Under the pieces are notes generated by a model, which saw only the letters and a program-made list of their open reading frames with translations, ran no database searches and had not been told where the DNA came from. The position numbers were made by a program, and so were the translations under genes. Source: Actinomycetales bacterium (GTDB taxonomy: Bacteria > Actinomycetota > Actinomycetes > Actinomycetales > Dermatophilaceae). From it: DNA of 32,000 nt. The stretch covers positions 85,307 through 117,306 of the forward strand of contig JADKAO010000001.1 in the NCBI GenBank assembly GCA_016715285.1. Direction: 5' to 3'. Below, piece by piece: positions 145-32,000 of this stretch (positions are counted from its first letter, which is position 1; each line of letters starts with the position of its first letter).

Positions 145-1064
145 GTGCACTCGCTCACCTCGGGTCAACGGGGGGAGGTGCACAGGCACCTGGTGGAGCG
201 GCCCCCGAGCCCACCAAGAAGGGTGGGTTCACGGCATACCTGCTGCTCTTGCCGGGCGTGCTCTGGCTACTCGTCTTCTTCGTCGCGCCCATGGTGCAGT
301 TGGCGGCGGTGTCGCTGCAGTCGCAGTTCCCGGGCTACCCGGGTTACTACTACCGCGACGTCAACTTCGGCAGCTACCTCACCGCGATTACGGAGTATCT
401 GCCGCACTTCGGTCGGTCCCTCTTGTTTGCGGGTGCGGCCACGCTGTTCGCGTTCGTGCTCGCCTATCCGCTGGCGTATGCGATGGCCTTCAAAGCCGGC
501 AAGTGGCGGGGCGTCATGATGATTTGCGTCATCGCGCCGTTCTTCACATCGTTCATCCTCCGCACCGTGGCGTGGCGCCAGATCCTGGCCGATGAGGGGC
601 CGATCGCGTCAACGCTGCGGTTCTTGCATCTCCTCCCAGGCGGTCACATCACGGAGACCTGGGTGGCGGTGGTTGCAGGGTTGACCTACAACTTCCTGCC
701 GTTCATGGTCCTGCCGATCTATGCCTCGCTGGAGCGGGCCGATCCGAAGATCATCGAGGCAGGCGGCGACCTTTACGCCAATGGCCTGACGACCTTCCGT
801 CGGGTCACCCTGCCGATGTCAATGCCGGGCGTGCTTGCTGGCACCTTGCTGACCTTCATCCCGGCCGCAGGTGACTACGTCAACGCCGAACTGCTCGGGT
901 CGGACACGTCAACCAAAATGGTCGGCAACGTCATCGAGAGCCAGTTCTTCAAGGTGCTCGGTGGCTTCCCGGTCGCCGCGGCGTTGTCCTTCACCTTGAT
1001 GGCCGTGATCCTCGCGCTCGTATTCCTCTATGTGCGCCGCTACGGGACGGAGGAACTCCTGTGA
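141..1064 (+). CDS. Polyamine-type ABC transporter permease (PotB-like)
   Basis: Listed ORF 108..1064. The internal ATG at 141 overlaps the upstream stop. The protein is multi-TM with an EAA-loop-like motif (EAGGDLYANGLTTFRRVTLP), typical of the binding-protein-dependent transport inner-membrane component. Confidence 0.85.
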   Translation: MSALAHLGSTGGGAQAPGGAAPEPTKKGGFTAYLLLLPGVLWLLVFFVAPMVQLAAVSLQSQFPGYPGYYYRDVNFGSYLTAITEYLPHFGRSLLFAGAATLFAFVLAYPLAYAMAFKAGKWRGVMMICVIAPFFTSFILRTVAWRQILADEGPIASTLRFLHLLPGGHITETWVAVVAGLTYNFLPFMVLPIYASLERADPKIIEAGGDLYANGLTTFRRVTLPMSMPGVLAGTLLTFIPAAGDYVNAELLGSDTSTKMVGNVIESQFFKVLGGFPVAAALSFTLMAVILALVFLYVRRYGTEELL

Positions 1065-1891
1065 CTACTGGACAGCGGATCCGCTTTTGGATCTCGGACC
1101 ACATCGTCATGCTCGTGGCGCTCTTCGTTCTCCTATACCTCTTCTTGCCGGTTGCCTACACGTTCGCCTTCTCGTTCAATAACTACAAGAAGTCGAACAT
1201 CTCGTGGAACCCGGAAGGCTCGCCGACCCTGGATCACTGGCAAAACCCGTGCGGGCCAGCGGGAATCTGCGACGCGCTCACGACGTCCATTACTGTCGGC
1301 GGCATTGCGACCTTGGTGGCGACCTTCCTCGGGACGCTATTGGCATTCGCACTCGTGCGCTATCGCTTCAAGGGCCGCGGGGTCGGCAACATCCTCGTGT
1401 TCATCCCGATGGCAACGCCCGAGATCGTGCTTGGCGCCTCGCTGCTGACCCTCTTCGTCCAGGGTTTCTCACAGTTCGGGCTCAAGCTCGGTTTTTGGAC
1501 GATCGTGCTCGCGCACATCATGTTCTGTTTGAGCTTCGTGGTGGTCACGGTCAAGGCGCGCCTGCAGAGTCTCGATCCACGACTGGAAGAAGCAGCTGCG
1601 GACCTGTATGCCGATTCGTTCAGTTCGTTCTGGAAGGTCACCTTCCCGCTCGTCCTGCCAGGCATTGTGTCAGCTGCCCTGCTGTCGTTCTCGCTGTCGT
1701 TCGACGACTTCATCATCACGAACTTCGTCTCAGGTGACACATCGACCTTCCCGAAGTACGTCTATGTGTCCTACCTCCGTGGCATTCCCGCGCAAGCCAA
1801 CGTCATCGGTTTCTCGATGTTTGTCATTGCGGTTGCGCTCGTCGTGCTGGGCCAAGTCATCGGCTCTCGTCGGCGCTCACCTGTCAAATAA
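1061..1891 (+). CDS. Polyamine-type ABC transporter permease (PotC-like)
   Basis: GTG start overlaps the upstream stop (GTGA). Has an EAA loop (EEAAADLYADSFSSFWKVTFP) and about 6 predicted TM segments. Confidence 0.85.
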   Translation: MTTGQRIRFWISDHIVMLVALFVLLYLFLPVAYTFAFSFNNYKKSNISWNPEGSPTLDHWQNPCGPAGICDALTTSITVGGIATLVATFLGTLLAFALVRYRFKGRGVGNILVFIPMATPEIVLGASLLTLFVQGFSQFGLKLGFWTIVLAHIMFCLSFVVVTVKARLQSLDPRLEEAAADLYADSFSSFWKVTFPLVLPGIVSAALLSFSLSFDDFIITNFVSGDTSTFPKYVYVSYLRGIPAQANVIGFSMFVIAVALVVLGQVIGSRRRSPVK

Positions 1892-1922
1892 CTTCTCACC
1901 CAGGAAAGCGGATTGATAGCTC

Positions 1923-3233
1923 GTGCGGATCCTCATGATCGGATCAGGCGGTGTCGGTGACGCCGCTGCGCGAATCGCCGTGGAACGCGATTTCTTCGAA
2001 GCGCTCGTCGTCGCGGATTACGACCTAGGGCGTGCGGAGGCCACCGTTGCGGCGGCCTCCGCACGCCGGCCCGGCGAAAGCCGACTGGTCGCGGCATACG
2101 TGGACGCCTCAGATCCTGAGTCGGTGGCAGCCCTAGCCCGCGAGCACCGGGCGACTCACGTCTTTAACGCCGTGGACCCGCGGTTCGTCATGCCGATCTT
2201 CACCGGTGCCCGCGCCGCGGGCGCCCACTACCTCGACATGGCGATGTCACTGTCCAAGCGGCACCCCGAGCGGCCCTACGAACTCACCGGAGTCATGCTC
2301 GGCCAGGAGCAGTTCGACCAGGCAGCGCAATGGGAGCAGGATGGTCTCCTCGCTCTCGTCGGCATCGGTGTCGAACCGGGCCTCTCCGACGTTTTTGCCC
2401 GGTATGCCGCCGACCACCTCTTCAGCGAGATCGATGAACTCGGCACGCGAGACGGTGCCAACCTCGTCGTACGCGACGAGGAGGGCAACGAGATCTTTGC
2501 CCCTGGCTTCTCGATCTGGACCGTGATCGAAGAGTGCCTCAATCCGCCGCTCATCTGGGAAGAAGGCGCTGGCTGGCGCACGACCCCGCCGTTCAGCGAG
2601 CCGGAGTTTTTTGACTTCCCCGAGGGCATCGGACCCGTTGAGTGCGTGAACGTCGAGCATGAGGAAGTCGTGCTCATGCCGCGCTGGGTCAAGGCCAAGA
2701 AGGTCACCTTCAAATACGGCCTCGGCGAGCAGATGATTGGCATTTTGCGGACGCTCCACGATCTCGGCCTCGACTCGACCTCGAAGGTCAACGTCAAGGG
2801 CGTGCAGGTCTCGCCGCGTGATGTCGTGGCTGCGTGCCTGCCCGATCCGGCGACCATCGGCCCACGGATGACTGGCAAAACCTGTGCGGGACTGTGGGTG
2901 ACGGGCACGGGCCGCGACGGCGAGCCGCGCGCGACCTACCTCTATCACGTCGTCGACAACGAGTGGACGATGCGTGAATACGGCGCCCAGTGCGTCGTCT
3001 GGCAAACCGCGATCAACCCGATTGTTGCCCTCGAACTCCTCGCCACCGGGGTGTGGTCAGGTGCTGGCGTCCTCGGCCCGGAGGCCTTCGACGCGGTGCC
3101 CTTCCTCGACCTGCTCGCGGCCCCCAAACCGCACGGTTACGCCTCGTCGTGGGGGATGGAAGACCGTGACCCAGCAGCGACATCGGCGACCTCACCGTCG
3201 AGCGACCACCCCACCGACGACGCGGCTGCCTAG
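1923..3233 (+). CDS. Saccharopine dehydrogenase family NAD(P)-binding protein
   Basis: N-terminal Rossmann motif MRILMIGSGGVGD. The length and overall pattern match the Sacchrp_dh family. The C-terminal tail is low complexity and acidic/Ser-rich. Confidence 0.7.
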   Translation: MRILMIGSGGVGDAAARIAVERDFFEALVVADYDLGRAEATVAAASARRPGESRLVAAYVDASDPESVAALAREHRATHVFNAVDPRFVMPIFTGARAAGAHYLDMAMSLSKRHPERPYELTGVMLGQEQFDQAAQWEQDGLLALVGIGVEPGLSDVFARYAADHLFSEIDELGTRDGANLVVRDEEGNEIFAPGFSIWTVIEECLNPPLIWEEGAGWRTTPPFSEPEFFDFPEGIGPVECVNVEHEEVVLMPRWVKAKKVTFKYGLGEQMIGILRTLHDLGLDSTSKVNVKGVQVSPRDVVAACLPDPATIGPRMTGKTCAGLWVTGTGRDGEPRATYLYHVVDNEWTMREYGAQCVVWQTAINPIVALELLATGVWSGAGVLGPEAFDAVPFLDLLAAPKPHGYASSWGMEDRDPAATSATSPSSDHPTDDAAA

Positions 3234-3242: not shown

Positions 3243-4292
3243 ATGGCCCGCTACGGCGCTCAGTTCGGTCCCGACGTCACCTTCCTCGGGGTGCCGCGCT
3301 GCGACCTGACCGACCCGAGCTCGTATGCCGGCGCGGACGTCGTGATTCTCGGCGCGCCCTTCGATGGCGGCACGTCGCATCGTGCCGGCACGCGTTTTGG
3401 TCCGCAGGCAATCCGGACCACGGACTATTTGGGTCATGACGGGTCGCGGCCATCGCTCGCCTTGCGGGTCGACGCGCTCCAAGACCTGCGGGTGCTCGAT
3501 GCGGGCGATATCGAAATGCCCCCAGGGCACATCGAACGCTCGCTCGGTGCCCTGGAGACTGCGGTCGAGCAGGTATGCCGTGCCGGCGCCATTCCCGTGG
3601 TCCTCGGCGGCGACCACTCGATTGCGTATGCCGATGCGCGGGGAGCGGCCAATGTCCTTGGCGCGGGCCGGGTTTCGATGCTGCACTTTGACGCTCATGC
3701 CGACACAGGCGACATCGAGTTCGGGTCGCTGTGGGGACACGGGCAACCCATGCGTCGGCTCATCGAGTCCGGGGCCTTGCGCGGGGATCGCTTCCTGCAG
3801 ATTGGGCTGCGGGGCTACTGGCCGGGACCAGAGACTCTGGCATGGATGGCCGATCAGGGCATGCGCTCCTATGAGATGACCGAGATCGGAGTGCGCGGCT
3901 TGCAGCCGTGTCTCACCGAGGCTTTCGGAATCGCGACCGACGACTGCGAGGGCGTCTTCCTCTCGGTTGACATCGACGTCTGCGACCCCGGTCATGCCCC
4001 TGGCACCGGAACGCCCGAGCCGGGCGGTTTATCCTCACGCGAACTCCTCGACTCGGTCCGGCGGATTTGCCTTGAGCTACCCGTCGTGGGCATCGATGTC
4101 GTCGAGGTCAGCCCGCCCTACGATCACGCTGATATCACCGCAGCGCTGGCAAATAGAGTGGTCCTCGAGGCCCTGTCTGCCATTGCGCGGCGGCGACGCG
4201 ACGCGGCATACGGGACCGTTTGGGACCCGAGCACCCCCTTGCTGCACGACCGGACGACGCCACACTCGCACCCACAGGAGCCGACATCATGA
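3243..4292 (+). CDS. Agmatinase / guanidinobutyrase-type ureohydrolase
   Basis: Carries the Mn-binding arginase-family motifs GGDHSIAY, DAHADTGD and SVDIDVCDPGHAPGTGTPEPGG. Confidence 0.85.
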   Translation: MARYGAQFGPDVTFLGVPRCDLTDPSSYAGADVVILGAPFDGGTSHRAGTRFGPQAIRTTDYLGHDGSRPSLALRVDALQDLRVLDAGDIEMPPGHIERSLGALETAVEQVCRAGAIPVVLGGDHSIAYADARGAANVLGAGRVSMLHFDAHADTGDIEFGSLWGHGQPMRRLIESGALRGDRFLQIGLRGYWPGPETLAWMADQGMRSYEMTEIGVRGLQPCLTEAFGIATDDCEGVFLSVDIDVCDPGHAPGTGTPEPGGLSSRELLDSVRRICLELPVVGIDVVEVSPPYDHADITAALANRVVLEALSAIARRRRDAAYGTVWDPSTPLLHDRTTPHSHPQEPTS

Positions 4293-5632
4293 CCGCCCAA
4301 CCCATCGAGCAGCACCGCGTCCTCAAGACCGCGATCCCCGGACCGCGCTCCCAGGCGCTGCAGGCGCGCAAGCTCGCGTCGGTGTCCGCGGGCGTGAGCA
4401 CGGGGCTGCCGATCTATGTCGAGCGGGGGGCGGGCGGCATCCTCGTCGACGCTGACGGCAACCAGCTCATCGACTTCGGTTCGGGCATCGCGGTGACGAG
4501 TGTCGGCAATGGTGCGCCGCGCGTGATCGAGGCGGTGCAGCGGCAGATCGCCGACTTCACCCACACGTGCTTCATGGTCAACCCATATGAGGAATACGTC
4601 GAGGTCTGCGAGAAGCTCAACGAGCTCACGCCCGGTGACCACGACAAGCGGACGGCGCTATTCAACTCCGGCGCTGAAGCAGTCGAAAACGCGGTCAAGG
4701 TCGCGCGGCATTACACCGGCAAGGACGGGATCGTCGCGTTCGACCACGCCTACCACGGGCGCACCAACCTCACCCTCGCGATGACCGCCAAGAACATGCC
4801 CTACAAGCACAAGTTCGGCCCGTTTGCGAGCGAGCTTTACCGGGTGCCGATGGCCTACCCCTACCGCTGGCCGGGCGGTCCGCAGCACTGCGCGGACGAG
4901 GCGTTCAGCTACATCATCGACCAGATCCACGCCCAGATCGGTGAGGAGAACACGGCCGCCGTCATCATCGAGCCGATCCAAGGCGAGGGCGGGTTCATCG
5001 TCCCGCCGGCGGGCTTCCTCAAGCAGCTGAGCGAGTGGTGCACGGCTAACAACATCCTGTTTATCGCTGACGAAGTGCAGTCCGGCTTCTGCCGCAGTGG
5101 TGACTGGTTCGCCAGTGACTTCGAGGGGATCGTGCCGGACCTCATCACGACTGCGAAAGGCATTGCGGGCGGTATGCCGTTGTCTGCCGTCACGGGACGC
5201 GCGGACATCATGGACACGATCCACCCCGGTGGGCTGGGCGGAACATATGGCGGCAACCCGGTCGCGTGCGCCGCGGCGCTGGCGTCGATCGAGACCATGG
5301 AGGAGGAGAACCTCATTCAGCGGGCACGTGACATCGAGGCCATTCTTAAGGGGCGACTTGAGCAGTTGGCCGCGAAATACGACGAAGTGGGTGAGATCCG
5401 AGGCCGCGGCGCGATGATCGCAATGGAACTCGTCACCGACCGCGAGACGAAGGAACCAGCGGCAGCGTTGACTGCCGCGATCAACAAGGCATGCCACGAA
5501 CGTGGCCTCGTGACCTTGACCTGCGGCACGCTGGGCAATGTATTCCGGTTCTTGCCGCCGCTGTCCATGGGTGACGACCTGCTCAATGAGGGCTTGGACA
5601 TCCTCGACGAGGCGTTTGCTGCGTCGGTCTGA
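4289..5632 (+). CDS. gabT: 4-aminobutyrate--2-oxoglutarate transaminase (class III aminotransferase)
   Basis: ATG at 4289 overlaps the upstream stop (ATGA). Motifs ADEVQSGFCRSGDWFA and TTAKGIAGGMPLSAV (PLP lysine region). The listed ORF start at 4220 lies inside the upstream gene. Confidence 0.85.
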   Translation: MTAQPIEQHRVLKTAIPGPRSQALQARKLASVSAGVSTGLPIYVERGAGGILVDADGNQLIDFGSGIAVTSVGNGAPRVIEAVQRQIADFTHTCFMVNPYEEYVEVCEKLNELTPGDHDKRTALFNSGAEAVENAVKVARHYTGKDGIVAFDHAYHGRTNLTLAMTAKNMPYKHKFGPFASELYRVPMAYPYRWPGGPQHCADEAFSYIIDQIHAQIGEENTAAVIIEPIQGEGGFIVPPAGFLKQLSEWCTANNILFIADEVQSGFCRSGDWFASDFEGIVPDLITTAKGIAGGMPLSAVTGRADIMDTIHPGGLGGTYGGNPVACAAALASIETMEEENLIQRARDIEAILKGRLEQLAAKYDEVGEIRGRGAMIAMELVTDRETKEPAAALTAAINKACHERGLVTLTCGTLGNVFRFLPPLSMGDDLLNEGLDILDEAFAASV

Positions 5633-5695: not shown

Positions 5696-7162
5696 GTGGA
5701 CTTCATGATTGACCGCCAAGCTCTGCTGGACTCGGTGCCCAAGGGGCTCTATATCGACGGTCAGTGGCGTGACTCGAGTGACGGCACGACGCTCGAGGTT
5801 GACAACCCGGCCACCGGCGAGGTGTTGGCGACGATTGCCAGTGCCACGCCCGCTGATGGGATGGCGGCGCTCGATGCAGCCGTTGCCGCCCAAGCGAGTT
5901 GGGCCAAGGTGCCGCCGCGCGAGCGGGGCGAAATCTTGCGGACGGCATACGAGAAGATCGTCGAGCGCACCGAGGAGTTCGCGCTCCTCATGACCCTTGA
6001 GATGGGCAAACCGCTCGCGGAGGCGCGCGGCGAGGTTGCTTATGGCGCCGAGTTTTTCCGGTGGTTTAGCGAGGAGGCCGTCCGGATCCACGGGCGCTAC
6101 TCGGTCGCCCCCAACGGCGCGAGCCGACTGCTCACGATGAAGCAGCCGGTCGGACCGACGCTCATGATCACGCCGTGGAACTTCCCCCTCGCGATGGGCA
6201 CGCGCAAGATCGGCCCGGCGATTGCCGCTGGCTGCACGATGGTCGTCAAGCCGGCCTCGCAGACGCCGCTCACCATGCTGGCGCTCGTCCAGTTGTTGGA
6301 GGAGTGCGGCGTCCCCGCCGGCGTCCTCAACGTCATCACGACCGCGCACACGGGCGAGGTCATGGAGCCGATCATCCGCGACCCGCGTCTGCGCAAGCTG
6401 ACCTTTACGGGCTCGACGCAGGTGGGGCAGCGGCTGGTCGAGCAGTCCGCTCAGGGCCTGCTGCGGCTGTCGATGGAGTTGGGCGGCAATGCGCCGTTCA
6501 TCGTGTTTGACGACGCCGACATCGATGCTGCGGTCACGGGCGCCATGCTCGCGAAGATGCGCAATATCGGTGAGGCGTGCACGGCGGCCAACCGGTTCCT
6601 TGTGCACGAGTCGGTTGCGGCGGAGTTCTCGGAGAAGTTCGCGGCGCGCATGGCCGCGCTGACCGTCGGCGACGGCACCAAAGACGGGATCGATGTCGGA
6701 CCCCTCGTGGACCAGAAGGCTCGCGACGGTGTCGACGCGCTCGTGCAGGAGGCTGTTGCTGCCGGTGCCAAGGTCGTCGTCGGTGGCGGTCACGCCGAGG
6801 GTCCGGGGTGGTTCTATCAGCCGACGGTGCTCACCGATGTGCCCGCTGACGCCCGGATCGCTGTTGAGGAAATCTTCGGCCCGGTGGCGCCGATCTCGAC
6901 CTTCCAGACCGAGGAGGAGGCGCTGACCCGAGCCAACGACACGGCATACGGGCTCATTGCCTATGCCTTCACCCGCGATCTGGCGCGCGCGCTGCGGGTG
7001 AGCGAGGCGCTGGAGTTTGGGATGGTCGGCATCAACCAGGGCGTCGTGTCCAACCCAGCCGCACCCTTTGGTGGCGTGAAGGCGAGCGGGTTTGGCCGTG
7101 AGGGTGGCTTCGAGGGCATCGACGAGTACCTCGAGGTGAAGTACGTCGGCATCGCTCCGTGA
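5696..7162 (+). CDS. gabD: Succinate-semialdehyde dehydrogenase (aldehyde dehydrogenase family)
   Basis: 488 aa with ALDH motifs FTGSTQVG, ELGGNAPFIV and the ITPWNFP region. An alternative ATG start lies at 5705. Confidence 0.85.
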   Translation: MDFMIDRQALLDSVPKGLYIDGQWRDSSDGTTLEVDNPATGEVLATIASATPADGMAALDAAVAAQASWAKVPPRERGEILRTAYEKIVERTEEFALLMTLEMGKPLAEARGEVAYGAEFFRWFSEEAVRIHGRYSVAPNGASRLLTMKQPVGPTLMITPWNFPLAMGTRKIGPAIAAGCTMVVKPASQTPLTMLALVQLLEECGVPAGVLNVITTAHTGEVMEPIIRDPRLRKLTFTGSTQVGQRLVEQSAQGLLRLSMELGGNAPFIVFDDADIDAAVTGAMLAKMRNIGEACTAANRFLVHESVAAEFSEKFAARMAALTVGDGTKDGIDVGPLVDQKARDGVDALVQEAVAAGAKVVVGGGHAEGPGWFYQPTVLTDVPADARIAVEEIFGPVAPISTFQTEEEALTRANDTAYGLIAYAFTRDLARALRVSEALEFGMVGINQGVVSNPAAPFGGVKASGFGREGGFEGIDEYLEVKYVGIAP

Positions 7163-7692: not shown

Positions 7693-8033
7693 GGCGATTG
7701 AGTGGCGCGGTGAGCTTGGCCGCGCTCGCGACCACCGCTCGGTCGATGGGCCGCTCGGTGCGGATCGTTGATGGGGGCGCGGACAAGAAGGCTGCGCTCG
7801 CGGCTTTTGCCGAGGGGCTTGCGCTGCCCGACTGGTTTGGCAAGAACCTCGACGCCCTCACCGACGCGTTGCGCGACCTCGCCGACGAGACCGCACGCGA
7901 GATCGAGCTCGTCTGGGACGGCACCGCGCTGATCGCCCGCAACGACCCCAAGGCGTATGCCGCCTTGCTCACAGTGCTGCGCGATGTCGAGGCCGAGCGC
8001 GACGACCTGCATATCACCGTCATCGAGCGTTGA
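7689..8033 (+). CDS. Barstar-family ribonuclease inhibitor
   Basis: LALPDWFGKNLDALTDALRDL matches the barstar signature (YYGENLDALWDCL). The GTG start overlaps the RNase stop (GTGA). Confidence 0.75.
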   Translation: MRRLSGAVSLAALATTARSMGRSVRIVDGGADKKAALAAFAEGLALPDWFGKNLDALTDALRDLADETAREIELVWDGTALIARNDPKAYAALLTVLRDVEAERDDLHITVIER

Positions 8034-8063: not shown

Positions 8064-8207
8064 TTAGACCTTGAGGACCTCGACGAGCCCAACAAGCTCC
8101 GCGAGCACGTCGAAGTCGTCGTCCTGAGTGCACACCGGCATACCGTGCACGGCAGCTGTCGCCGCTTCGGCCATAGCCCGTGATCCTGCGCACGGGGATC
8201 CCGCGGT
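8064..8207 (-). pseudogene. Remnant of a PIN-domain (VapC-like) toxin, C-terminal part only
   Basis: The minus-strand reading ..AGSRAMAEAATAAVHGMPVCTQDDDFDVLAELVGLVEVLKV* (stop at 8064-8066) matches the usual PIN C-terminus (IAATA..hG.pv.T.D.DF). No N-terminal half exists, because the neighbouring vapC stop is at 8210. Confidence 0.4.
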
Positions 8208-9157: not shown

Positions 9158-9537
9158 CCCTGGTTGTTGACGCATCGGCCTGCGCCGAAATCCTCCTGAA
9201 CACCCAGCGTGGACTCCGAGCAGCCGCGAAGCTCGGCGACCACCACCTCATCGCTCCGGATCACCTCACGGCCGAGGTTGCCTCGGTCATGCGGGGGTGG
9301 TCCCTTCGTGGACATCTCGCAGACGCCGAGCCGCTTCAGGCATTCAGTGCCTTCCACCAACTGGGGATCGAACAGGTGGCCATGAGCGATTTCCTACCTG
9401 CAGTCTGGGCGCTGAGGCACAACCTCACGGCATACGACGCCTTGTATGTCGTGCTCGCTCGCGCTGCGGGCTGTCCCCTGCTGAGTCTGGATGCCCGGCT
9501 CGCAGCCGCAGCCCCCGACTGCGTTGTCACGCCCTGA
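9154..9537 (+). CDS. vapC: PIN-domain toxin VapC
   Basis: Motifs MTLVVDASACAEILL and TAYDALYVVLARAAGCPLLSLDARL carry the PIN acidic residues. ATGA overlap with vapB. Confidence 0.8.
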   Translation: MTLVVDASACAEILLNTQRGLRAAAKLGDHHLIAPDHLTAEVASVMRGWSLRGHLADAEPLQAFSAFHQLGIEQVAMSDFLPAVWALRHNLTAYDALYVVLARAAGCPLLSLDARLAAAAPDCVVTP

Positions 9538-22821: not shown

Positions 22822-23253
22822 ATGACTCCATCACATGTGGCTGTGCGCCGAGGTCGACGCGCGCTGGGGTGGTGGCTCGCGGGGACTCTGATCGTAGGGC
22901 TCGCCGGCTGCTCTGCGTCCGCCGGTTCATCCCCCGAGGAAGCGGCACAGACCTTCTTCCGCTCGCTCGGCGCCAAAGACACCAAAGCCGCCTGCGGGGT
23001 CGTCGCGTATGCCGGCAAGCCCCTTGCCGGGGATGACCTCACCTTGTGTGCCTCCGGGTTTGACTCGGTTGTTGCAGTGGCGGGTGCCGACGATCTCACC
23101 GCGTTGCGTGGCTCTGCGGTGTCAGGGGCACAGGTTTACGGGGACAAGGCGACAGTTCGCGCCGACCAGCTCACTGGCGTGCCCACGGCATACCGGCAGG
23201 ATCTCGGGCTGGTGCGGGTCGACGGCCGCTGGTACCTCGACATCCCGCAGTAG
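22822..23253 (+). CDS. Putative lipoprotein of unknown function
   Basis: Signal peptide with lipobox LAGC (RRGRRALGWWLAGTLIVGLAGCSAS), followed by a small mature domain. ATG at 22822 is internal to listed ORF 22744..23253. Confidence 0.55.
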   Translation: MTPSHVAVRRGRRALGWWLAGTLIVGLAGCSASAGSSPEEAAQTFFRSLGAKDTKAACGVVAYAGKPLAGDDLTLCASGFDSVVAVAGADDLTALRGSAVSGAQVYGDKATVRADQLTGVPTAYRQDLGLVRVDGRWYLDIPQ

Positions 23254-23365: not shown

Positions 23366-24505
23366 TTGCCAGAAACTCAACCGTCCCAAGACATGGAGGT
23401 TGTCGGCGGTCGAGACCATACTGACCGTATGTACGGAAATGACTTCGGTGACTTCGATGACCCGGGCGCTGGCCCCCTCAATGCGGCAGACACCGGCGAG
23501 GTGGAGGCCGCTGCGGCCCACGCCGACCGTCGGGCCGAACTCGATCTGAGCGACTTCGACGCGATCATCGCGGCCGACCAGCGCATCGAGCCGCGTGACG
23601 CGATGCCGGAGGAATACCGGCAGACGCTGATCCGACAGATCGCCCAACACGCGCACTCCGAGATCATCGGGATGCAGCCTGAGGGCAACTGGCTGACGCG
23701 CGCTCCGTCGTTGCGGCGCAAGGCGATCCTCATCGCCAAGGTCCAGGATGAGGCGGGCCACGGGCTCTACCTCTACTCGGCCGCCGAGACCCTCGGCATC
23801 ACCCGTGAAGAGCTGCTCGACCGGCTCCACAACGGCAAGCAGAAGTACTCCTCGATCTTCAACTACCCGACGCTCACGTGGGCCGACATTGGCGCGATCG
23901 GCTGGCTGGTCGACGGCGCGGCGATCATGAACCAAGTGCCGCTCTGCCGCTGCTCCTACGGCCCCTACGCCCGCGCGATGATCCGCACCTGCAAGGAGGA
24001 GTCCTTCCACCAGCGGCAGGGCTTCGAAGCGCTGTGGGACCTCATGCGCGGCACCGAGGCCCAGCAGGCCATGGCCCAGGATGCGATCAACCGGTGGTGG
24101 TGGCCCGCCCTGGCGATGTTCGGCCCGCGCGACACTGGCGAACACGCCGTCAAGGGTGGACACACCGCGCAGTCCATGGCGTGGGGCATCAAGCGGTTCT
24201 CCAACGACGAGCTGCGTCAGCGCTTTGTCGACATGACCGTGCCGCAGGCCGAGCGCCTCGGGCTCAAACTCCCAGACCCCGAGCTCAAGTGGAACGAGGA
24301 GCGCGGTCACTACGACTTTGGCGAGATCGACTGGGACGAGTTCTGGCGCGTCCTCAAGGGCGACGGCGCCTGCAACGCCCAGCGCATGGAGCGCAGGGTC
24401 ACCTCACACAAGCAAGGCGCCTGGGTGCGCGACGCCGCGGCAGCGTATGCCGCAAAGTCGGAAGGCCGCAAGGCCGCCGCGAGCAATGAAGGAAGCGCAG
24501 CATGA
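23366..24505 (+). CDS. paaA: 1,2-phenylacetyl-CoA epoxidase subunit A
   Basis: Motifs [44 protein letters not shown] and [11 protein letters not shown] are di-iron ligand motifs. The start is uncertain (TTG 23366, ATG 23393, ATG 23429). Confidence 0.9.
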
Positions 24506-24789: not shown

Positions 24790-25595
24790 GCAGCGACACC
24801 GAGACAACTGCGGCAACCGCGACCGGAGGCCCGGCAACAGCGGGAGCAGCGCACACGGCATACCTGCTTGGTCTTGCCGATGACGCACTCATCTACTCTC
24901 ATCGGCTCTCCGAATGGCTGACCTGGGCGCCCATGCTCGAAGAAGACATGGCGATGGCCAATATCTCGCTCGACCTCATCGGTCAGGCGCGGTCCATCTA
25001 CACCTACGTCGGCTCGATCGATGGCACCAACCGCACCGAGGATGACCTCGCGTACTGGCGCGATGAGCGCGAGTTCCGCAATGTCCACCTCGTCGAGCAG
25101 CGCCGCGGCGACTTCGCGCAAGAGATGGCGAGGATGCTGTGGTTCGCGGCATACCAGAAGGGCCTGTATGCCGCGCTGTCGGGTTCGGCAGACGCGCAAC
25201 TGCGGGCGATCGCGGTCAAGGCGCTCAAAGAAGTTCGTTACCACTACGACCACGCCGCTCAATGGGCGGTCCGGCTGGGTGACGGCACCGGCGAGTCGCA
25301 CGACAAGATGCAAGCAGCGTTGACCTGGGTTGCGCCCTACGTTGCGGAGCTCTTCAGCGATGACGCCAATTCGGTTGCGGCAGCTGACGCGGGAGTCGGC
25401 GTGCTGCCGTCAACGCTTCAGGCTGCGGCGGCGAGCGCCGTTGCGGACGTGCTGCGCGAGGCGACGCTCGAGGCTCCCGCGGATTCACGTTGGCACGCCC
25501 GGGGAGGACGCGAGGGGGTGCACTCGGAGCCGATGGGTTACCTCCTGGCCGAGATGCAGCACCTGCCGCGGTCCCACCCGGGTGCGGCATGGTGA
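24786..25595 (+). CDS. paaC: 1,2-phenylacetyl-CoA epoxidase subunit C
   Basis: Position in the cluster, and LGLADDALIYSHRLSEWLTWAPMLEEDMAMANISLDLIGQAR is typical PaaC. Confidence 0.85.
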   Translation: MSSDTETTAATATGGPATAGAAHTAYLLGLADDALIYSHRLSEWLTWAPMLEEDMAMANISLDLIGQARSIYTYVGSIDGTNRTEDDLAYWRDEREFRNVHLVEQRRGDFAQEMARMLWFAAYQKGLYAALSGSADAQLRAIAVKALKEVRYHYDHAAQWAVRLGDGTGESHDKMQAALTWVAPYVAELFSDDANSVAAADAGVGVLPSTLQAAAASAVADVLREATLEAPADSRWHARGGREGVHSEPMGYLLAEMQHLPRSHPGAAW

Positions 25596-26161
25596 TGGTA
25601 CTCGCTGACGTGACTGCAGAGGTGGCGGTTGACGTGCCTGTTGCGCCTGATGCGCACGAGGTGCTCGCAGCGGTTCGGGCGATCCCGGACCCGGAGATCC
25701 CGGTTGTCACAATCGAGAGCCTCGGCATCCTGCGCGACCTGCGCCTTGATGAAGCGGCGGGTGAGCTCCACGCGGTCATCACCCCGACCTATTCCGGGTG
25801 CCCCGCCATGCAGGCGATCGAGGATGCCATCGCGCGCGTATGCCGTGCGCACGGCCTGCGCGGTGTCGTTACGACCCAGCTGTCTCCGGCTTGGACGACT
25901 GACTGGATTGGGGAGGAAGCACGAGAAGCGTTGCGGCGCTTTGGGATTGCTCCCCCCAGCCCGTCGGCGGCCGGTCGTCCCGTGTCGGTGTCGATCATGG
26001 CCCGACCTGGAGGCGACGATGCGGATCAGGCCGTGGCCTGCCCCCGCTGCGGTAGCCACCGCACCACTGTGCTGTCCAACTTCGGTTCGACGGCGTGCAA
26101 AGCCCTTCGCCGCTGCGATGCGTGCGGCGACCCCTTCGACGAGTTCAAGGCGCTCTCATGA
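25589..26161 (+). CDS. paaD: Phenylacetate-CoA oxygenase subunit PaaD/PaaJ
   Basis: IPDPEIPVVTIESLGILRDL is the MIP18-like domain, followed by a C-terminal CPRCGS...CKALRRCDACGDPFDEFK Cys cluster. Candidate starts at 25589, 25592 and 25595 overlap the paaC stop. Confidence 0.8.
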   Translation: MVMVLADVTAEVAVDVPVAPDAHEVLAAVRAIPDPEIPVVTIESLGILRDLRLDEAAGELHAVITPTYSGCPAMQAIEDAIARVCRAHGLRGVVTTQLSPAWTTDWIGEEAREALRRFGIAPPSPSAAGRPVSVSIMARPGGDDADQAVACPRCGSHRTTVLSNFGSTACKALRRCDACGDPFDEFKALS

Positions 26162-27273: not shown

Positions 27274-27800
27274 CCCGATGCCTGGCCGCCCGACTGATGT
27301 GCACGAGCAGGGAGGCGGCGACGGTAGGTCACCCAGGCGCAGCTGTCGCCCGCCATCCGATCGACCTCGACCCATTGGTCGGGGTCGATCGGCGGGAAGG
27401 TCACTGAGCCGGCGGCGTCTTGGTCGACCTCGGTGATCACCAGGTGCGTTGCCTGCGGCATCGCGAGGCGATAGATCTGGCCGCCACCGGCGATCCAGAT
27501 CGGCGCACCGAACTCCTCGGCTGCGTGGAGCGCGGCGTCGAGCGACGGGGCGGTGGTCACTCCAGGCGCGTGCCATTCCGGGTCACGGGTCAACACGATC
27601 GTGTGCCGCCCTGGCAACGCCCGGCCGATGGAGTCGAACGTGCCCCGTCCCATGATGAGAGTCCCACCGAGGGTGGTGCGCTTGAAGAAGGCGAGGTCCT
27701 CGGGCAGGTGCCACGGCATACCGCTGCCGTCTCCGATGACCCCGTTGCGCGCCACCGCCGCGATCATGCCCACAGCGGGTGCGGGGTCAGTCGCGCTCAT
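27261..27800 (-). CDS. folA: Dihydrofolate reductase
   Basis: Motifs [32 protein letters not shown] and [12 protein letters not shown] at 27800 overlaps the thyA stop (ATGA). The 3' end overlaps the convergent paaE by 13 nt. Confidence 0.85.
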
Positions 27801-28633
27801 ACGGCGATCGGAGCGGGGATGCCGGGGTGCGGGTCGTAGCCGTCTAGGGCGATGTCGGCCAGGTCGAACTCGTCGATGTCCAGCCCCGGGGTGAGCCGCA
27901 GCGTGGGCAGCGGGCGGCAATCTCGGCTGAGCTGAAGCCGCGCCTGGTCGAGGTGGTTGACGTAGAGGTGGGCATCGCCGAGCGTGTGCACGAAATGCCC
28001 CGGCCGCAGCCCCACGACTTGAGCGACCATATGCGTCAGCAGCGCGTAGGACGCGATATTGAAGGGGACTCCCAAGAAGACGTCCGCCGAGCGCTGATAG
28101 AGCTGACAGTCGAGGTATGCCGTCTCGTCACCGCCGCCGCTCGCCTCGCCGGCGTGGGTGGCCGGGCGCACGTAGAACTGGAAAAGGGCGTGGCAGGGGG
28201 GTAGGGCCATGGCGTCCACGTCGGCGACATTCCACGCAGAGACGATGTGCCGGCGGGAGTCGGGGTTGGCGCGGAGGCCGTTGATCACTGTGGCGATCTG
28301 GTCGATCTGGCGCCCATCCGAGGCCGGCCACGACCGCCATTGGTGACCGTAAACAGGGCCGAGGTCGCCGTTCTCATCAGCCCACTCGTCCCAAATGGAG
28401 ATCTTGCGCTCGTGCAACCACGCGATGTTGGTGTCGCCGCGGAGGAACCACAGCAACTCGCCAAAGATCGAGCGCAAGTGCAGGCGCTTGGTGGTCATCG
28501 CCGGGAAACCCTCAGCGAGATCGAATCTCATCTGATGCCCGAACACACTGAGCGTCCCCGTGCCGGTGCGGTCGTCCTTGCGTACGCCATCGGTGAGGAT
28601 GCGATCAAGCAGGTTGTGGTACTGATGCACCAT
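27797..28633 (-). CDS. thyA: Thymidylate synthase (ThyA)
   Basis: Motifs [44 protein letters not shown] and DAHLYVNH. Confidence 0.95.
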
Positions 28634-28879: not shown

Positions 28880-29767
28880 ATGACGATGCCCATTTTCGGC
28901 CGGGTTCTAACAGCCATGGTGACCCCGATGACCCCCACCGGCGAGGTGGATGAGGACGGTGTGGTCGCTGTTGCCGAGCATCTGTTGGCCCACGGCCATG
29001 ATGGGTTGGTCGTCAACGGCACGACTGGCGAGTCGGCCACGCTGACCAGCGATGAGAGCATTCGGGTCATCGAGCTTGTTGCTCAGACGGTGGGCGATCG
29101 CGCGGTCGTCCTGGCTGGCGTGGGCTCCAATGACACGGCGCACAGCATCGCTATGTCACGCCGGGCAGCAGCCGTCGGTGCGACCGGTCTCCTCGTGGTG
29201 ACCCCGTACTACAACAAGCCCACGCAGCCAGGGTTGGTCGCTCACTTCTCTGCCGTCGCGGACGCCACCGACCTGCCCGTGCTGCTCTATGACATCCCGG
29301 GGCGCGCCGGCATCCCCATCCAGACCGAGACCCTCATCCGCCTGGCCGAGCACCCGAGGATCGTGGCCGTCAAAGACGCTAAATGCGACCTCTGGGCCGC
29401 GAGCAAGGTCATGGCCGCAACCGAGCTGCAGTACTACTGCGGCGCCGACGAAACCAACCTCGCGCTGCTCGCCCAGGGCGCAGTTGGCATCGTCTCCGTG
29501 GTCGGTCACGTCGCCGGACGCGAGTATGCCGCGATGATCCGCGCCGTAGAGGCGGGGGACCTCGCGACCGCCCGCACGATCCACACTCGCCTCATCCCCG
29601 TGGTGGACGCGATCATGTCAACCAGCCAGGGCGCCATCATGGCCAAGGCCGCGCTCGTCGAACTCGGCGTCATCACCAGCGCCGCCGTCCGGCTCCCGCT
29701 CGTGGAGTCGCCCATCGACCACCTCGAGATCCTGCGGGCTGGTCTGTCGAAATCAGGAATCCGTTGA
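28880..29767 (+). CDS. dapA: 4-hydroxy-tetrahydrodipicolinate synthase
   Basis: MTMPIFGRVLTAMVTPMTPTGEVD...GLVVNGTTGES...YNKP. ATG at 28880 is internal to listed ORF 28832..29767. Confidence 0.9.
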   Translation: MTMPIFGRVLTAMVTPMTPTGEVDEDGVVAVAEHLLAHGHDGLVVNGTTGESATLTSDESIRVIELVAQTVGDRAVVLAGVGSNDTAHSIAMSRRAAAVGATGLLVVTPYYNKPTQPGLVAHFSAVADATDLPVLLYDIPGRAGIPIQTETLIRLAEHPRIVAVKDAKCDLWAASKVMAATELQYYCGADETNLALLAQGAVGIVSVVGHVAGREYAAMIRAVEAGDLATARTIHTRLIPVVDAIMSTSQGAIMAKAALVELGVITSAAVRLPLVESPIDHLEILRAGLSKSGIR

Positions 29768-31449
29768 GTCACCCTCACCCCGAGCTCACCCTTCCACCTG
29801 CTCTGCCCGCCAACGGGTTGCGCTTTGTCGCGCTAGGGGGACTGGGCGAGATCGGCCGCAATATGGCCGTGCTCGAGACCCGCGGCCGGCTGCTCATCAT
29901 CGACTGCGGGGTGCTCTTCCCTGAGGACCACCACCCTGGCGTCGACTTGATCCTGCCGGACTTCAGTTATCTCGACGGTCGCCTCGATGACGTGGAAGCC
30001 ATCGTGCTCACCCACGGCCATGAAGACCACATTGGCGCGGTGCCCTTCCTCCTTGCCCGCAAGCCCGACATCCCGCTCATTGGCTCGCGGTTGACCCTCG
30101 CCTTGGTGGAAGCCAAGCTCAAGGAACACCGCATTCGGCCGTACACGCTGGAGGTCAAAGAGGGCCAACGCGAGCAACTCGGCGCCTTTGAGGTCGAGTT
30201 CGTCGCGGTCAACCACTCCATCCCCGATGCGCTCGCCGTGATGGTGCGCACCGACGCCGGCACCCTCCTGCACACCGGTGACTTCAAGATGGACCAGTTG
30301 CCGCTCGACGGCCGGATCACCGATCTGCGTGCCTTCGCGCGCCTCGGCGAAGAAGGCGTCGACCTTTTCCTCACTGACTCCACCAATGCGGACATCCCCG
30401 GCTTCACCGCACCTGAGCGGGACATCTCCTCGGCGATCGACAAGGTATTCCGCCACGCCGAGCGCCGCATTGTCGTGGCCTGTTTCTCCTCGCACGTGCA
30501 CCGAGTGCAACAGGTCCTCGACGCCGCAGAGAAGGCCGGTCGTAAGGTGGCGATGGTCGGTCGGTCGATGGTCCGCAACATGGGCATCGCCGCAGAGTTG
30601 GGCTATCTGCATGTGCCCGACGGCGTGCTCGTCGACATCAAGCGACTAGGGGACTATCCCGACAGCAAGATCGTGCTCGTGTGCACCGGCAGTCAGGGCG
30701 AGCCGATGGCCGCGCTCTCGCGCATGGCCAACCGAGATCACCGCATCGATGTTGGCCCAGGCGACACCATCCTGCTCGCGAGTTCGCTCATCCCCGGCAA
30801 CGAGAACGCGGTCTATCGCGTCATCAACGGGCTCATGCGCCTCGGGGCCAATGTCGTGCACAAGGGCAACGCCAAAGTCCACGTCTCGGGGCATGCCGCA
30901 GCGGGTGAGCTGACCTACTGCTACAACATCGTCAAGCCCCGCAATGTCCTTCCCGTGCATGGCGAATGGCGCCACATGTTCGCCAACGCTGAACTCGCGG
31001 TCGCCACGGGTGTGCCGCGTGAGCAGGTGCTCCTCGCCGAAGACGGCGTGGTCGTCGACCTCGTCGATGGCGTCGCGCGGATCGTCGGTGCGATTCCAGC
31101 GGGCTATATCTATGTCGACGGGTCCTCCGTGGGTGGCACGGACGAAGCGATGCTCAAAGATCGCCGGATCCTCCGCGACGAAGGCTTTATCACGTGCATC
31201 GTCGTCATTGACGCCGCCACCGGCAAGATCGCCGCCGGCCCCGAGATCACCGCGCGCGGCTTCGCCGAGGACCAAGAGGTGTTTGACCAGGTCATCCCAC
31301 GGGTGGAGGCAGCGATCATCTCCGCCACCGAGGGCGGCATCACCGATGAGCATCAACTCCAGCAGGTCATCCGCCGCACGGTCGGGAGCTGGGTCGGCGG
31401 CAAGATCCGCCGCCGCCCCATGATCATCCCGATCGTTATCGAGGCCTGA
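29764..31449 (+). CDS. rnj: Ribonuclease J
   Basis: TTG at 29764 overlaps the dapA stop (TTGA) and gives the typical actinobacterial N-terminus MSHPHPEL..LRFVALGGLGEIGRNM. Has the beta-lactamase motif THGHEDHIGA. The upstream part of listed ORF 29383..31449 is a shadow of dapA. Confidence 0.9.
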   Translation: MSHPHPELTLPPALPANGLRFVALGGLGEIGRNMAVLETRGRLLIIDCGVLFPEDHHPGVDLILPDFSYLDGRLDDVEAIVLTHGHEDHIGAVPFLLARKPDIPLIGSRLTLALVEAKLKEHRIRPYTLEVKEGQREQLGAFEVEFVAVNHSIPDALAVMVRTDAGTLLHTGDFKMDQLPLDGRITDLRAFARLGEEGVDLFLTDSTNADIPGFTAPERDISSAIDKVFRHAERRIVVACFSSHVHRVQQVLDAAEKAGRKVAMVGRSMVRNMGIAAELGYLHVPDGVLVDIKRLGDYPDSKIVLVCTGSQGEPMAALSRMANRDHRIDVGPGDTILLASSLIPGNENAVYRVINGLMRLGANVVHKGNAKVHVSGHAAAGELTYCYNIVKPRNVLPVHGEWRHMFANAELAVATGVPREQVLLAEDGVVVDLVDGVARIVGAIPAGYIYVDGSSVGGTDEAMLKDRRILRDEGFITCIVVIDAATGKIAAGPEITARGFAEDQEVFDQVIPRVEAAIISATEGGITDEHQLQQVIRRTVGSWVGGKIRRRPMIIPIVIEA

Positions 31450-31529
31450 CCCTTCACAAACCCGACTCCAGCCCGACGCGCCTCGACCCCCGCCCCGCGG
31501 ACCCGGCCTGCGACGAGCCTCGCGAGCGC

Positions 31530-32000
31530 CTACCAGGGGCGCTGCGGTGCGGTCTCCTCGATGCCCTCGAGGTCTCGGGTTACCCAGCCGTCGGCGGACG
31601 CGGCATACCGGAGGGCGGGTCCGTGGGCAGCGAATCGCCGCACCGCGGCGACCAGGCGCTCGACATGCTCAAGTCGCGTTGCCAGCCCCAGGCTCGCGCG
31701 CACAGCAGTGACGGGTATGCCGGGTGCATCGCACCCGCTTGTCGCGCTGGAATTGCCCGGCACGGCATACCCCTCGCGGTTGCCTACTGGTGAGCTGGCG
31801 CCGCCAGCGGGGTGGTCCGCCAGGAGCGCGTCCACCAGCTGGTGCGCGCAGAACTTGCCGTCCCGGACCCCGATCCCATATTCGACCGAGAGCGCTGTCG
31901 CCACCAAGGCGGAGTCCAGGCCATCGATCGTGAAGGCGACCACGGCCACCCGGTCGGATCCCTCTCCGAACATGGAGTGCAGGCGTACCCCCGGAATCGC
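31530..32000 (-). CDS. Aminotransferase class V-fold PLP enzyme (cysteine desulfurase-like), C-terminal part, runs off the 3' edge
   Basis: The frame is open to the window end (..AIPGVRLHSMFGEGSDRVAVVAFTIDGLDSALVATALSVEYGIGVRDGKFCAHQL...RASLGLATRLEHVERLV). Confidence 0.7.
   Translation of the reverse strand, partial: AIPGVRLHSMFGEGSDRVAVVAFTIDGLDSALVATALSVEYGIGVRDGKFCAHQLVDALLADHPAGGASSPVGNREGYAVPGNSSATSGCDAPGIPVTAVRASLGLATRLEHVERLVAAVRRFAAHGPALRYAASADGWVTRDLEGIEETAPQRPW

Follow-up and report, generated by a model that had tools for sequence, protein, structure and literature searches.

A hyper-abundant non-palindromic octamer in a clade of Dermatophilaceae, tentatively read as a self-DNA tag

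The DNA considered here is a window of 32,000 nucleotides (positions 85,307 to 117,306 of contig JADKAO010000001.1, assembly GCA_016715285.1), which comes from an uncultured member of the Dermatophilaceae related to Ca. Phosphoribacter and represented by a metagenome-assembled genome (MAG). The RNase J encoded in the window is 100% identical to the protein of Dermatophilaceae MAGs, assembly GCA_018063285.1 is ~99.4% identical to the window in DNA, and a MAG with 88% RNase J identity is labelled Ca. Phosphoribacter. Anchored on Pfam matches, the genes form a normal actinobacterial core-chromosome set, with ABC permeases, a saccharopine dehydrogenase, an arginase-family enzyme, an aminotransferase, an aldehyde dehydrogenase, a barnase/barstar pair, an RHH/PIN pair and dxr, followed by genes for an M50 protease, a GH25 muramidase, a GNAT protein and an ABC exporter, then dapB, azlCD, paaABCDE, folA, thyA, dapA and the RNase J gene. 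Dispersed over this region is the octamer GTATGCCG/CGGCATAC, the subject of this report, which was found 51 times by exact search, 27 times on the + strand and 24 times on the - strand, at a density of 1.59 copies per kb. All 51 start coordinates listed in a sequence-only reading of the window were recovered in this search, with none missing and none spurious.

Such an abundance far exceeds what composition predicts. The expectation was 0.66 ± 0.76 copies, with a maximum of 3, in 100 dinucleotide-preserving shuffles of the window, 1.2 copies with independent bases at the true G+C content of 66.5%, and 2.0 copies under a third-order Markov model whose training sequence, the window, already contains the octamer. 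The earlier estimate of about one copy had assumed a G+C content of 70%. Depending on the null, the octamer is over-represented 25- to 77-fold. A maximal-order Markov null, which had been suggested, was not used as it would predict the octamer from itself; it is degenerate here because the internal 6- and 7-mers of the word exist almost solely inside it. In an exhaustive 8-mer count the octamer ranks first in the window, the next words (26, 23 and 19 copies) are one-base shifts of the octamer itself, and unrelated GC-rich 8-mers reach at most ~19 copies. Neither the 8-mer counts nor the Markov observed-to-expected ratios revealed a comparable enrichment of unrelated AT-containing octamers, the presence of which would, according to the sequence-only reading, have spoken against its proposal.

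The word is also sharply delimited. As had been noted by eye, its hexamer core occurs only four times outside it (at 720, 6962, 19926 and 28770), such that 51 of the 55 occurrences of TATGCC in the window lie inside the octamer, and the octamer is followed by T in 26 copies, by C in 15, by G in 8 and by A in 2. When the 51 sites are aligned they share only these 8 bases and their flanks are unique, the weak base preferences at +8 and +9 stemming from the following codon. A longer repeat or a mobile element is ruled out by the unique flanks, and the earlier judgement that the copies are not repetitive extragenic palindromic (REP) sequences or miniature inverted-repeat transposable elements (MITE) holds in view of these flanks, the shared length of exactly 8 bp and the intragenic location of 50 of the 51 copies. 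Contamination by the Illumina adapter TCGTATGCCGTCTTCTGCTTG was also rejected, since the best site match covers 15 of 21 bases, no more than chance, and the same sites are present in independent assemblies, including finished isolate genomes. The octamer is a substring of this small-RNA/TruSeq adapter; the overlap looks coincidental, interferes with text searches, and might now and then lead to genuine reads of these genomes being over-trimmed.

The intragenic location was established with Pfam-anchored genes and gene calls from an identical MAG contig. A codon-aware null, proposed with the original observation, leaves the enrichment intact: 44 intragenic copies compare with 3.3 ± 1.7, and at most 9 in 1000 trials, when synonymous codons are permuted within each gene, every protein and the codon usage of each gene being held fixed; shuffles of the codon order give 1.0 ± 1.0. 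An artefact of codon usage or composition is thus ruled out by the dinucleotide shuffle, the third-order Markov model, the synonymous shuffle and the codon-order shuffle. Five of the six frame and orientation classes are used, and one copy lies outside genes:

xxG-TAT-GCC-Gxx (Tyr-Ala): 22 copies
xCG-GCA-TAC (Ala-Tyr, antisense): 14 copies
GTA-TGC-CGx (Val-Cys-Arg): 5 copies
xxC-GGC-ATA-Cxx (Gly-Ile-Pro): 5 copies
xGT-ATG-CCG (Gly-Met-Pro): 4 copies
Intergenic: 1 copy

In the analysed window genes, the dipeptides themselves are not enriched (Tyr-Ala 32 and Ala-Tyr 31, against ~27 expected), and it is their spelling that is skewed, the exact octamer encoding 20 of the 32 Tyr-Ala pairs (G-TAT-GCC-G) and 13 of the 31 Ala-Tyr pairs. 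Peptide-level selection for Tyr-Ala is ruled out, the dipeptide being at its expected frequency, five frame and orientation classes being used and the strands being equal. Taking the proteins as they stand, the octamer fills 44 of the 59 positions that can be reached by synonymous changes alone; occupancy is 20/20 for Tyr-Ala, 13/14 for Ala-Tyr, 4/4 for Val-Cys-Arg and 3/6 for Gly-Met-Pro, and only 4/14 in the frame that needs the very rare ATA codon. The word is spelled with the rare codons TAT, GCA, GTA and ATA. Four of the five ATA codons of the analysed gene set are inside octamers, while 417 ATC/ATT codons lie outside, and codon-usage statistics of these genomes are distorted as a consequence of this confinement; ATA-bearing sites are found for instance at 16069, 19298, 21536, 22138 and 31715. 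Peptides that can spell the octamer are enriched, with 4 V-C-R against 0.56 expected and 8 T-A-Y against 1.6. Since the dipeptides are near expectation with their spelling skewed, most synonymously permitted sites are filled and the spelling peptides are enriched, the force acts on DNA and not on peptides; it prevails over codon preference at nearly all places, and changes in proteins have started to follow from it.

Near-variants of the octamer do not accompany it. The window and five related genomes, 140 kb when pooled, contain 172 perfect copies, and the 24 one-mismatch variants stand at about outgroup background, without any halo. The preferred-codon spelling of Tyr-Ala, GTACGCCG, is even depleted, with 2.1 copies per 100 kb where outgroups have 9.8, and is absent from Humibacillus plus Intrasporangium. 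A single deamination hotspot converting GTACGCCG to GTATGCCG was considered and is insufficient: the precursor is depleted but too rare to yield 51 copies, and orthologous sites show alternatives that differ at many positions. Along the window the copies are spaced slightly more evenly than at random (coefficient of variation 0.75, P ~0.02). Among close pairs, whose number matches chance, seven of nine are inverted, which is not significant, and some lie between convergent genes. Inverted pairs giving short hairpins at the ends of genes or close to them were seen at window:17778-17798, L090:11783-11814 and L086:3237-3278, too few for statistics, the L090 pair sitting between convergent genes right after RNase J; as a weak hint, they are reminiscent of the terminator pairs of the Neisseria DNA uptake sequence (DUS) and the Pasteurellaceae uptake signal sequence (USS).

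The enrichment extends beyond this organism. Genomes chosen by RNase J identity to the window were compared over 21.7 kb each at the orthologous dapB-RNase J-ftsK locus, and are listed below with octamer copies per kb:

Window: 1.59
MAG, RNase J 100%: 1.48
MAG, 96%: 1.15
MAG, 92%: 1.34
MAG, 88%: 0.97
MAG, 85%: 1.34
MAG, 85% (ENA): 0.78
Humibacillus xanthopallidus: 0.60
Terrabacter sp. Root181: 0.46
Intrasporangium calvum (type strain): 0.37
Oryzobacter telluris, 81%: 0.05

At 78 other actinobacterial loci the density is 0-0.09 copies per kb. Enrichment is thus clade-wide and graded, high in the MAGs, intermediate in three cultured genera and absent from Oryzobacter. With a third-order Markov model fitted to each locus, the octamer is the top outlier in every positive genome, with an observed-to-expected ratio of 17-25, and the method is specific, as ~75 negative loci top out at 4-8. 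The occupancy of synonymously permitted sites follows the same gradient, from 0.32-0.43 in the three cultured genera to 0.48-0.74 in the MAGs, and the frames that need unusual peptides are populated in MAGs only. Density declines as G+C content climbs from 66.5% to 74%, which might be explained if a stronger codon bias toward G+C at third positions opposes the octamer more effectively. A second abundant word, GTGCGCAT/ATGCGCAC, is the sole other comparable outlier among ~80 actinobacterial loci, with 8 copies in 16 kb against 0.42 expected (third-order Markov), on both strands and with unique flanks (L003:2146-14551, MAG Actinomycetes bacterium OH_SBlB_43, JAEWOA010000162.1); it may be another lineage-specific abundant word, or an effect of chance or of a peptide (GTG-CGC-ATG).

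The 51 copies in the window are given below, with positions from the exact search, the strand that reads GTATGCCG, the context in predicted genes and, where found, sharing with relatives, denoted by their RNase J identity:

232..239, - strand: ABC permease 1 (+ gene), antisense, ACG-GCA-TAC (T-A-Y)
1606..1613, + strand: ABC permease 2, sense, CTG-TAT-GCC-GAT (L-Y-A-D)
2092..2099, - strand: saccharopine dehydrogenase, antisense, GCG-GCA-TAC (A-A-Y)
2402..2409, + strand: saccharopine dehydrogenase, sense, CGG-TAT-GCC-GCC (R-Y-A-A)
3323..3330, + strand: arginase-family gene, sense, TCG-TAT-GCC-GGC (S-Y-A-G)
3573..3580, + strand: arginase-family gene, sense, GTA-TGC-CGT (V-C-R)
3626..3633, + strand: arginase-family gene, sense, GCG-TAT-GCC-GAT (A-Y-A-D)
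4204..4211, - strand: arginase-family gene, antisense, GCG-GCA-TAC (A-A-Y)
5172..5179, + strand: class-III aminotransferase, sense, GGT-ATG-CCG (G-M-P)
5943..5950, - strand: aldehyde dehydrogenase, antisense, ACG-GCA-TAC (T-A-Y)
6942..6949, - strand: aldehyde dehydrogenase, antisense, ACG-GCA-TAC (T-A-Y)
7955..7962, + strand: barstar gene, sense, GCG-TAT-GCC-GCC (A-Y-A-A)
8136..8143, - strand: the sole copy outside predicted genes, between barstar and the RHH antitoxin gene
9428..9435, - strand: PIN/VapC gene, antisense, ACG-GCA-TAC (T-A-Y)
9837..9844, - strand: dxr, antisense, ACG-GCA-TAC (T-A-Y)
10549..10556, + strand: dxr, sense, GCG-TAT-GCC-GTG (A-Y-A-V)
10709..10716, + strand: dxr, sense, GTA-TGC-CGG (V-C-R)
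11584..11591, - strand: M50 (RseP-like) protease gene, antisense, GCG-GCA-TAC (A-A-Y)
12095..12102, + strand: M50 protease gene, sense, GCG-TAT-GCC-GTG (A-Y-A-V)
13019..13026, - strand: GH25 muramidase (- gene), sense, CTG-TAT-GCC-GCC (L-Y-A-A)
13359..13366, - strand: GH25 muramidase, sense, GGT-ATG-CCG (G-M-P)
14441..14448, + strand: GNAT gene, sense, GGG-TAT-GCC-GTC (G-Y-A-V)
14663..14670, + strand: GNAT gene, sense, GGG-TAT-GCC-GTG (G-Y-A-V)
15055..15062, - strand: GNAT gene, antisense, ACG-GCA-TAC (T-A-Y)
15523..15530, + strand: ABC ATPase gene, sense, TTG-TAT-GCC-GTG (L-Y-A-V)
16069..16076, - strand: ABC ATPase gene, antisense, GAC-GGC-ATA-CCC (D-G-I-P), rare ATA codon
16311..16318, + strand: ABC-2 permease a, sense, GTG-TAT-GCC-GCC (V-Y-A-A)
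16845..16852, + strand: ABC-2 permease a, sense, GGG-TAT-GCC-GTC (G-Y-A-V)
17642..17649, + strand: ABC-2 permease b, sense, GTG-TAT-GCC-GTG (V-Y-A-V)
17778..17785, - strand: PEMT-like gene (- gene), at its 3' end, sense; makes up, as left arm, the inverted pair CGGCATAC-N5-GTATGCCG with 17791, near convergent gene ends
17791..17798, + strand: PEMT-like gene, antisense (A-A-Y); right arm of the inverted pair with 17778
19298..19305, + strand: Pyridox_ox_2 gene (- gene), antisense, CAC-GGC-ATA-CCG (H-G-I-P), ATA codon
19466..19473, - strand: Pyridox_ox_2 gene, sense, GAG-TAT-GCC-GCC (E-Y-A-A)
19873..19880, - strand: Pyridox_ox_2 gene, sense, GTA-TGC-CGT (V-C-R)
20450..20457, - strand: 313-aa hypothetical gene (- gene), sense, GGT-ATG-CCG (G-M-P)
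21030..21037, + strand: dapB, sense, GTA-TGC-CGG (V-C-R); common to the 96% and 92% relatives
21536..21543, - strand: dapB, antisense, CAC-GGC-ATA-CCC, ATA codon; common to the 96% and 92% relatives
22138..22145, + strand: azlC (- gene), antisense, CCC-GGC-ATA-CCC; common to the 92% and 85% (ENA) relatives and Terrabacter
23007..23014, + strand: 143-aa hypothetical gene, sense, GCG-TAT-GCC-GGC (A-Y-A-G)
23186..23193, - strand: 143-aa hypothetical gene, antisense, ACG-GCA-TAC (T-A-Y)
24445..24452, + strand: paaA, sense, GCG-TAT-GCC-GCA; common to four relatives
24856..24863, - strand: paaC, antisense (T-A-Y); common to the 96, 92 and 85% relatives and Intrasporangium calvum
25147..25154, - strand: paaC, antisense (A-A-Y); left arm of an inverted pair whose other arm is 25166; replaced in relatives by CGGCCTAC, with preferred codons
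25166..25173, + strand: paaC, sense (L-Y-A-A); common to the 92 and 85% relatives and Intrasporangium calvum
25838..25845, + strand: paaD, sense, GTA-TGC-CGT (V-C-R); common to all five MAG relatives
27714..27721, - strand: folA (- gene), sense, GGT-ATG-CCG (G-M-P); common to three relatives
28115..28122, + strand: thyA (- gene), antisense (T-A-Y); common to four relatives
29524..29531, + strand: dapA, sense, GAG-TAT-GCC-GCG; common to all five MAG relatives
31601..31608, - strand: class-V aminotransferase (- gene), sense (R-Y-A-A)
31715..31722, + strand: class-V aminotransferase, antisense, CCC-GGC-ATA-CCC, ATA codon
31763..31770, - strand: class-V aminotransferase, sense (G-Y-A-V)

Conservation between orthologues, a comparison proposed in the sequence-only reading, is pronounced. 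Four-fold-degenerate third positions of the window and each relative are identical at 46-50%, i.e., saturated, and an arbitrary 8-mer is the same in 11-20% of the aligned positions, a share of 27-29% being reached at matching amino acids. The octamer sites of the window are retained in five relatives at 9/14, 9/13, 5/12, 7/11 and 4/11 positions, and where the amino acids match 27 of 30 sites are kept, against ~28% for control 8-mers. Conversely, 9/11, 9/14, 5/8, 7/11 and 4/5 of the relatives' sites are also present in the window. A presence/absence matrix of 28 sites in 13 genes shows sharing that is coherent with clades, some sites being common to the MAG clade, others to Humibacillus, Intrasporangium and Terrabacter, and three spanning both groups. 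Outgroups without a site often differ in amino acids there: PaaD has V-C-R at site 25838 in the window and E-A-Q/H in Humibacillus/Intrasporangium, and DapA has Y-A at site 29524 and Y-R in outgroups, these outgroup states indicating that amino-acid replacements created octamer sites. Relatives that lost a site mostly revert to preferred codons, such as GCC-TAC. Already saturated at four-fold sites are the MAGs of the L084-L090 set whose RNase J is 92-96% identical to that of the window, and these seemingly close relatives are for that reason deeply diverged species or genera. At the other end of the scale, the conspecific strains L082, L083 and L001 differ by ~0.6%; within species, none of 77 single-nucleotide polymorphisms in 12 kb falls in an octamer, where only ~1 would be expected.

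Retention of this kind reflects either purifying selection on the sites or a persistent drive that re-creates them at the few permitted positions, and the data do not separate the two. Selection of the first kind would act if the octamer were the binding site of an abundant sequence-specific chromosomal protein, nucleoid-associated or chromosome-organising, each site being individually maintained. A protein-binding or chromosome-structure role has been proposed for the cyanobacterial octamer HIP1, with the same argument from conserved sites (Xu, Lawrence and Durand). The orthologous conservation, the clade-coherent sharing, the even spacing and the uniform density in core and accessory-looking genes would all agree with such a role, and strand symmetry suits a double-strand site. 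Thousands of minute benefits would nevertheless struggle to hold occupancies of 20/20 and 13/14 or to drive amino-acid replacements, no candidate protein is known, and nucleoid proteins seldom have sharp non-palindromic 8-bp specificity. Besides, HIP1 has a reported periodicity of 10-90 kb, and the window spans 32 kb. A binding site of this type thus appears unlikely.

The explanation tentatively favoured here is that GTATGCCG may be a tag of self DNA which a DNA-import machinery recognises and which owes its spread to molecular drive, a model proposed for the Neisseria DUS and the Pasteurellaceae USS. Its reader, accepting both orientations, would most likely be the DNA receptor of natural transformation, or else another sequence-reading DNA-transfer apparatus, and fragments that bear the octamer would be preferentially imported and recombined. 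Mutations that create the word would be over-transmitted in the population and those that destroy it under-transmitted, such that it would first fill every synonymously writable position, against codon preference, then start to replace amino acids, and stay at orthologous positions while neighbouring silent sites saturate. A transmission bias would explain the octamer more easily than selection site by site, because thousands of individually negligible sites are near saturation against codon preference. Were this correct in full, the octamer would be the first sequence-specific DNA-import signal beyond Neisseriaceae and Pasteurellaceae and likewise the first from any Gram-positive or actinobacterial lineage, with a putative receptor that reads an asymmetric 8-mer and a drive that saturates silent sites and rewrites peptides; this broader proposition must be regarded as rather doubtful.

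Several considerations weigh against import as the cause. Sequence-specific DNA uptake is known from two Gram-negative families only, with no report from Gram-positives or actinobacteria. Near-saturation and the missing one-mismatch halo are more extreme than is known for USS. Among Pfam and family matches in the window there are no uptake, methylation or defence genes, nor were uptake genes found in the ~22-32 kb covered per genome at the orthologous loci. Accessory-looking DNA carries the word as well. The two toxin/antidote pairs just upstream of dxr, namely a secreted-type barnase-like ribonuclease with barstar (window:7159-8033) and a PIN (VapC) toxin together with its FitA-like RHH antitoxin (window:8930-9537), bear it at normal density. 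(No family match was obtained for positions 8180-8930, which lie upstream of the RHH domain.) A non-syntenic island in the related locus L087 has full density; a 2-kb insertion in locus L085 has no copy (P ~0.07). Most of the viral matches listed are pairs expected by chance, but among them at least ~10 GC-rich loci have extra dispersed copies. The viral contigs L220, L254, L163, L160, L303 and L321 have 4-6 dispersed copies of GTATGCCG each, on both strands, at 0.4-1.2 per kb; L220 (IMGVR_UViG_3300036945_001045), with 5 copies over 11.3 kb, is a true fragment of a phage and has terminase, portal and head-morphogenesis genes, whose portal protein matches those of phages of unrelated hosts at <30% identity, so that no host can be inferred. 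Accessory-looking and viral copies would be explained at least as well by a process intrinsic to the cell. Finally, selection on a binding site, as argued for HIP1 (Xu, Lawrence and Durand), could also retain the sites.

An intrinsic process of this sort might be a sequence-specific repair or modification activity, for instance a methyltransferase with mismatch- or nick-directed correction toward its cognate sequence, of which the octamer would be a functionless by-product. It would account for the near-saturation of all synonymously permitted sites, for the absence of a halo with depletion of the nearest spelling, for the full density in toxin-antitoxin modules and in the lineage-specific island and, if real, for a moderate enrichment in phage DNA such as L220; HIP1 overlaps methyltransferase sites. 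The best-supported directional change, TAC to TAT (C to T) with a shift to GCA, leads toward AT, however, the opposite of very-short-patch repair (Vsr/Dcm), which restores C. Biases of that type yield less than two-fold enrichment, not 25-75-fold, the orthologous alternative states differ at so many positions that one mutational hotspot cannot make the octamer, and activities of this kind are not known to act on non-palindromic 8-mers. Site conservation has moreover been argued to speak against continual neutral replenishment (Xu et al.). On these grounds a repair by-product is distinctly unlikely.

Orientation bears on two further possibilities. The absence of strand bias seen by eye in the window is upheld by the pooled count over nine genomes (~230 kb), 102:101 with a 95% confidence interval of 0.43-0.57, in a region where most genes point the same way; the early dismissal of Chi and of FtsK orienting polar sequences (KOPS) is borne out by it. 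The reader could also be a double-stranded DNA translocase of the FtsK/SpoIIIE/TraB type acting in conjugative chromosomal transfer, the word being spread by transfer bias. The drive logic and its population-level signatures would apply equally, the length of 8 bp and the lack of a palindrome are shared with KOPS, SpoIIIE recognition sequences (SRS) and the TraB recognition sequences (TRS) of Streptomyces, and TraB-type conjugation is plausible in a clade with several filamentous genera, I. calvum being described as forming a branching mycelium. KOPS and SRS are strongly strand-skewed, though, and the lack of skew means that the octamer does not serve FtsK as its guide on the chromosome; none of the loci examined showed traB or a conjugative element, and no TRS is known at such density, so that a conjugative translocase seems quite improbable. 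A Chi-like role, in which the octamer would regulate a nuclease of the RecBCD/AddAB/AdnAB type and mark self DNA during the processing of double-strand breaks, would fit a non-palindromic, over-represented and clade-specific 8-mer, and carriage by phages, if real, would suit a self-marker. Known Chi sequences are skewed to the leading strand, which the octamer is not in ~230 kb of mostly co-oriented genes, its density is ~7 times that of Chi in E. coli, and its enrichment is far greater; such a role is highly improbable.

Searches of open-access papers and bioRxiv for the octamer text on either strand returned nothing relevant, and nothing was found there on these genera together with uptake sequences, octamers, competence, methylomes or REBASE; the genome paper of Ca. 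Phosphoribacter makes no mention of competence or pili. The statement that no actinobacterial equivalent has been described thus agrees with these sources. Hyper-abundant short words are rare. Those of proven function are DUS and USS only, both of them uptake signals, and HIP1 has been unexplained for 30 years; the octamer represents a tractable fourth case, independent, non-palindromic and in a different phylum. What writes and reads such words becomes directly testable because of a graded natural series (Oryzobacter ~0.05, cultured Terrabacter, Intrasporangium and Humibacillus ~0.4-0.6, MAGs mostly 1.0-1.6 per kb) with culturable members and a close negative relative. Were the word an uptake or transfer signal, sequence-specific DNA import would be extended to Gram-positives, and a route to genetic manipulation of Dermatophilaceae might open, including relatives of the Ca. 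Phosphoribacter that dominate biological phosphorus removal. The clade takes in the Ca. Phosphoribacter-like bacteria that are the dominant phosphate accumulators of wastewater. Whatever its function, the octamer is a strong taxonomic signature that could aid contig binning and the assignment of plasmids and phages to these hosts, and its density might link phages to Dermatophilaceae. Its measurable distortion of codon usage and proteins is to be allowed for in codon-usage and selection analyses of these genomes.

Among known repeated words, REP sequences, bacterial interspersed mosaic elements (BIME) and MITE resemble the octamer by their many dispersed copies, but they are longer, structured and intergenic and have common flanks. 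Chi, KOPS/SRS and TraB TRS resemble it in length, asymmetry and chromosomal over-representation; Chi and KOPS/SRS differ in being replication-skewed and of much lower density and enrichment, and TRS are clustered in plasmid clt loci. The sequence-only reading had likened the octamer to DUS/USS or to HIP1. As a description this likeness stands and is stronger than first seen, as it spans density, both orientations, intragenic location, sharpness, clade specificity, site conservation and the codon and peptide imprint, whereas membership of HIP1 does not, because the octamer is non-palindromic (the reverse complement of GTATGCCG being CGGCATAC) and its host is not a cyanobacterium. HIP1 (GCGATCGC) is likewise an octamer, tens of times over-represented, with up to about one copy per gene, and is conserved between genomes inside open reading frames as well as between them; with its 25- to 77-fold enrichment and sites kept between genomes, the present word falls in the HIP1-type range of 15- to 300-fold. 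HIP1 is, in contrast, palindromic, overlaps known methyltransferase sites and belongs to another phylum, and the octamer is AT-richer than its genome, against compositional bias. The function of HIP1 is debated, candidate accounts invoking chromosome structure, methylation or repair, and DNA uptake (2026 preprint). From the Neisseriaceae DUS (GCCGTCTGAA / ATGCCGTCTGAA and dialects) and the Pasteurellaceae USS the octamer differs by its Gram-positive actinobacterial host, which has no known uptake specificity, by its 8 bp without extended flank consensus, by the near absence of one-mismatch variants and by the near-saturation of permitted sites. With its commonest next base it shares ATGCCGT with the Neisseria AT-DUS in about half of the copies, a chance-level match in which the CTG core, important for DUS, is absent. 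Like DUS and USS, on the other hand, it is short and non-palindromic, occurs about once per kb, equally on both strands and mostly within genes, is placed in the least costly reading frames and leaves a codon and peptide imprint; like them, too, it is clade-specific, graded in density between genera and conserved at orthologous positions, with a spacing somewhat more even than random and perhaps occasional inverted pairs near gene ends.

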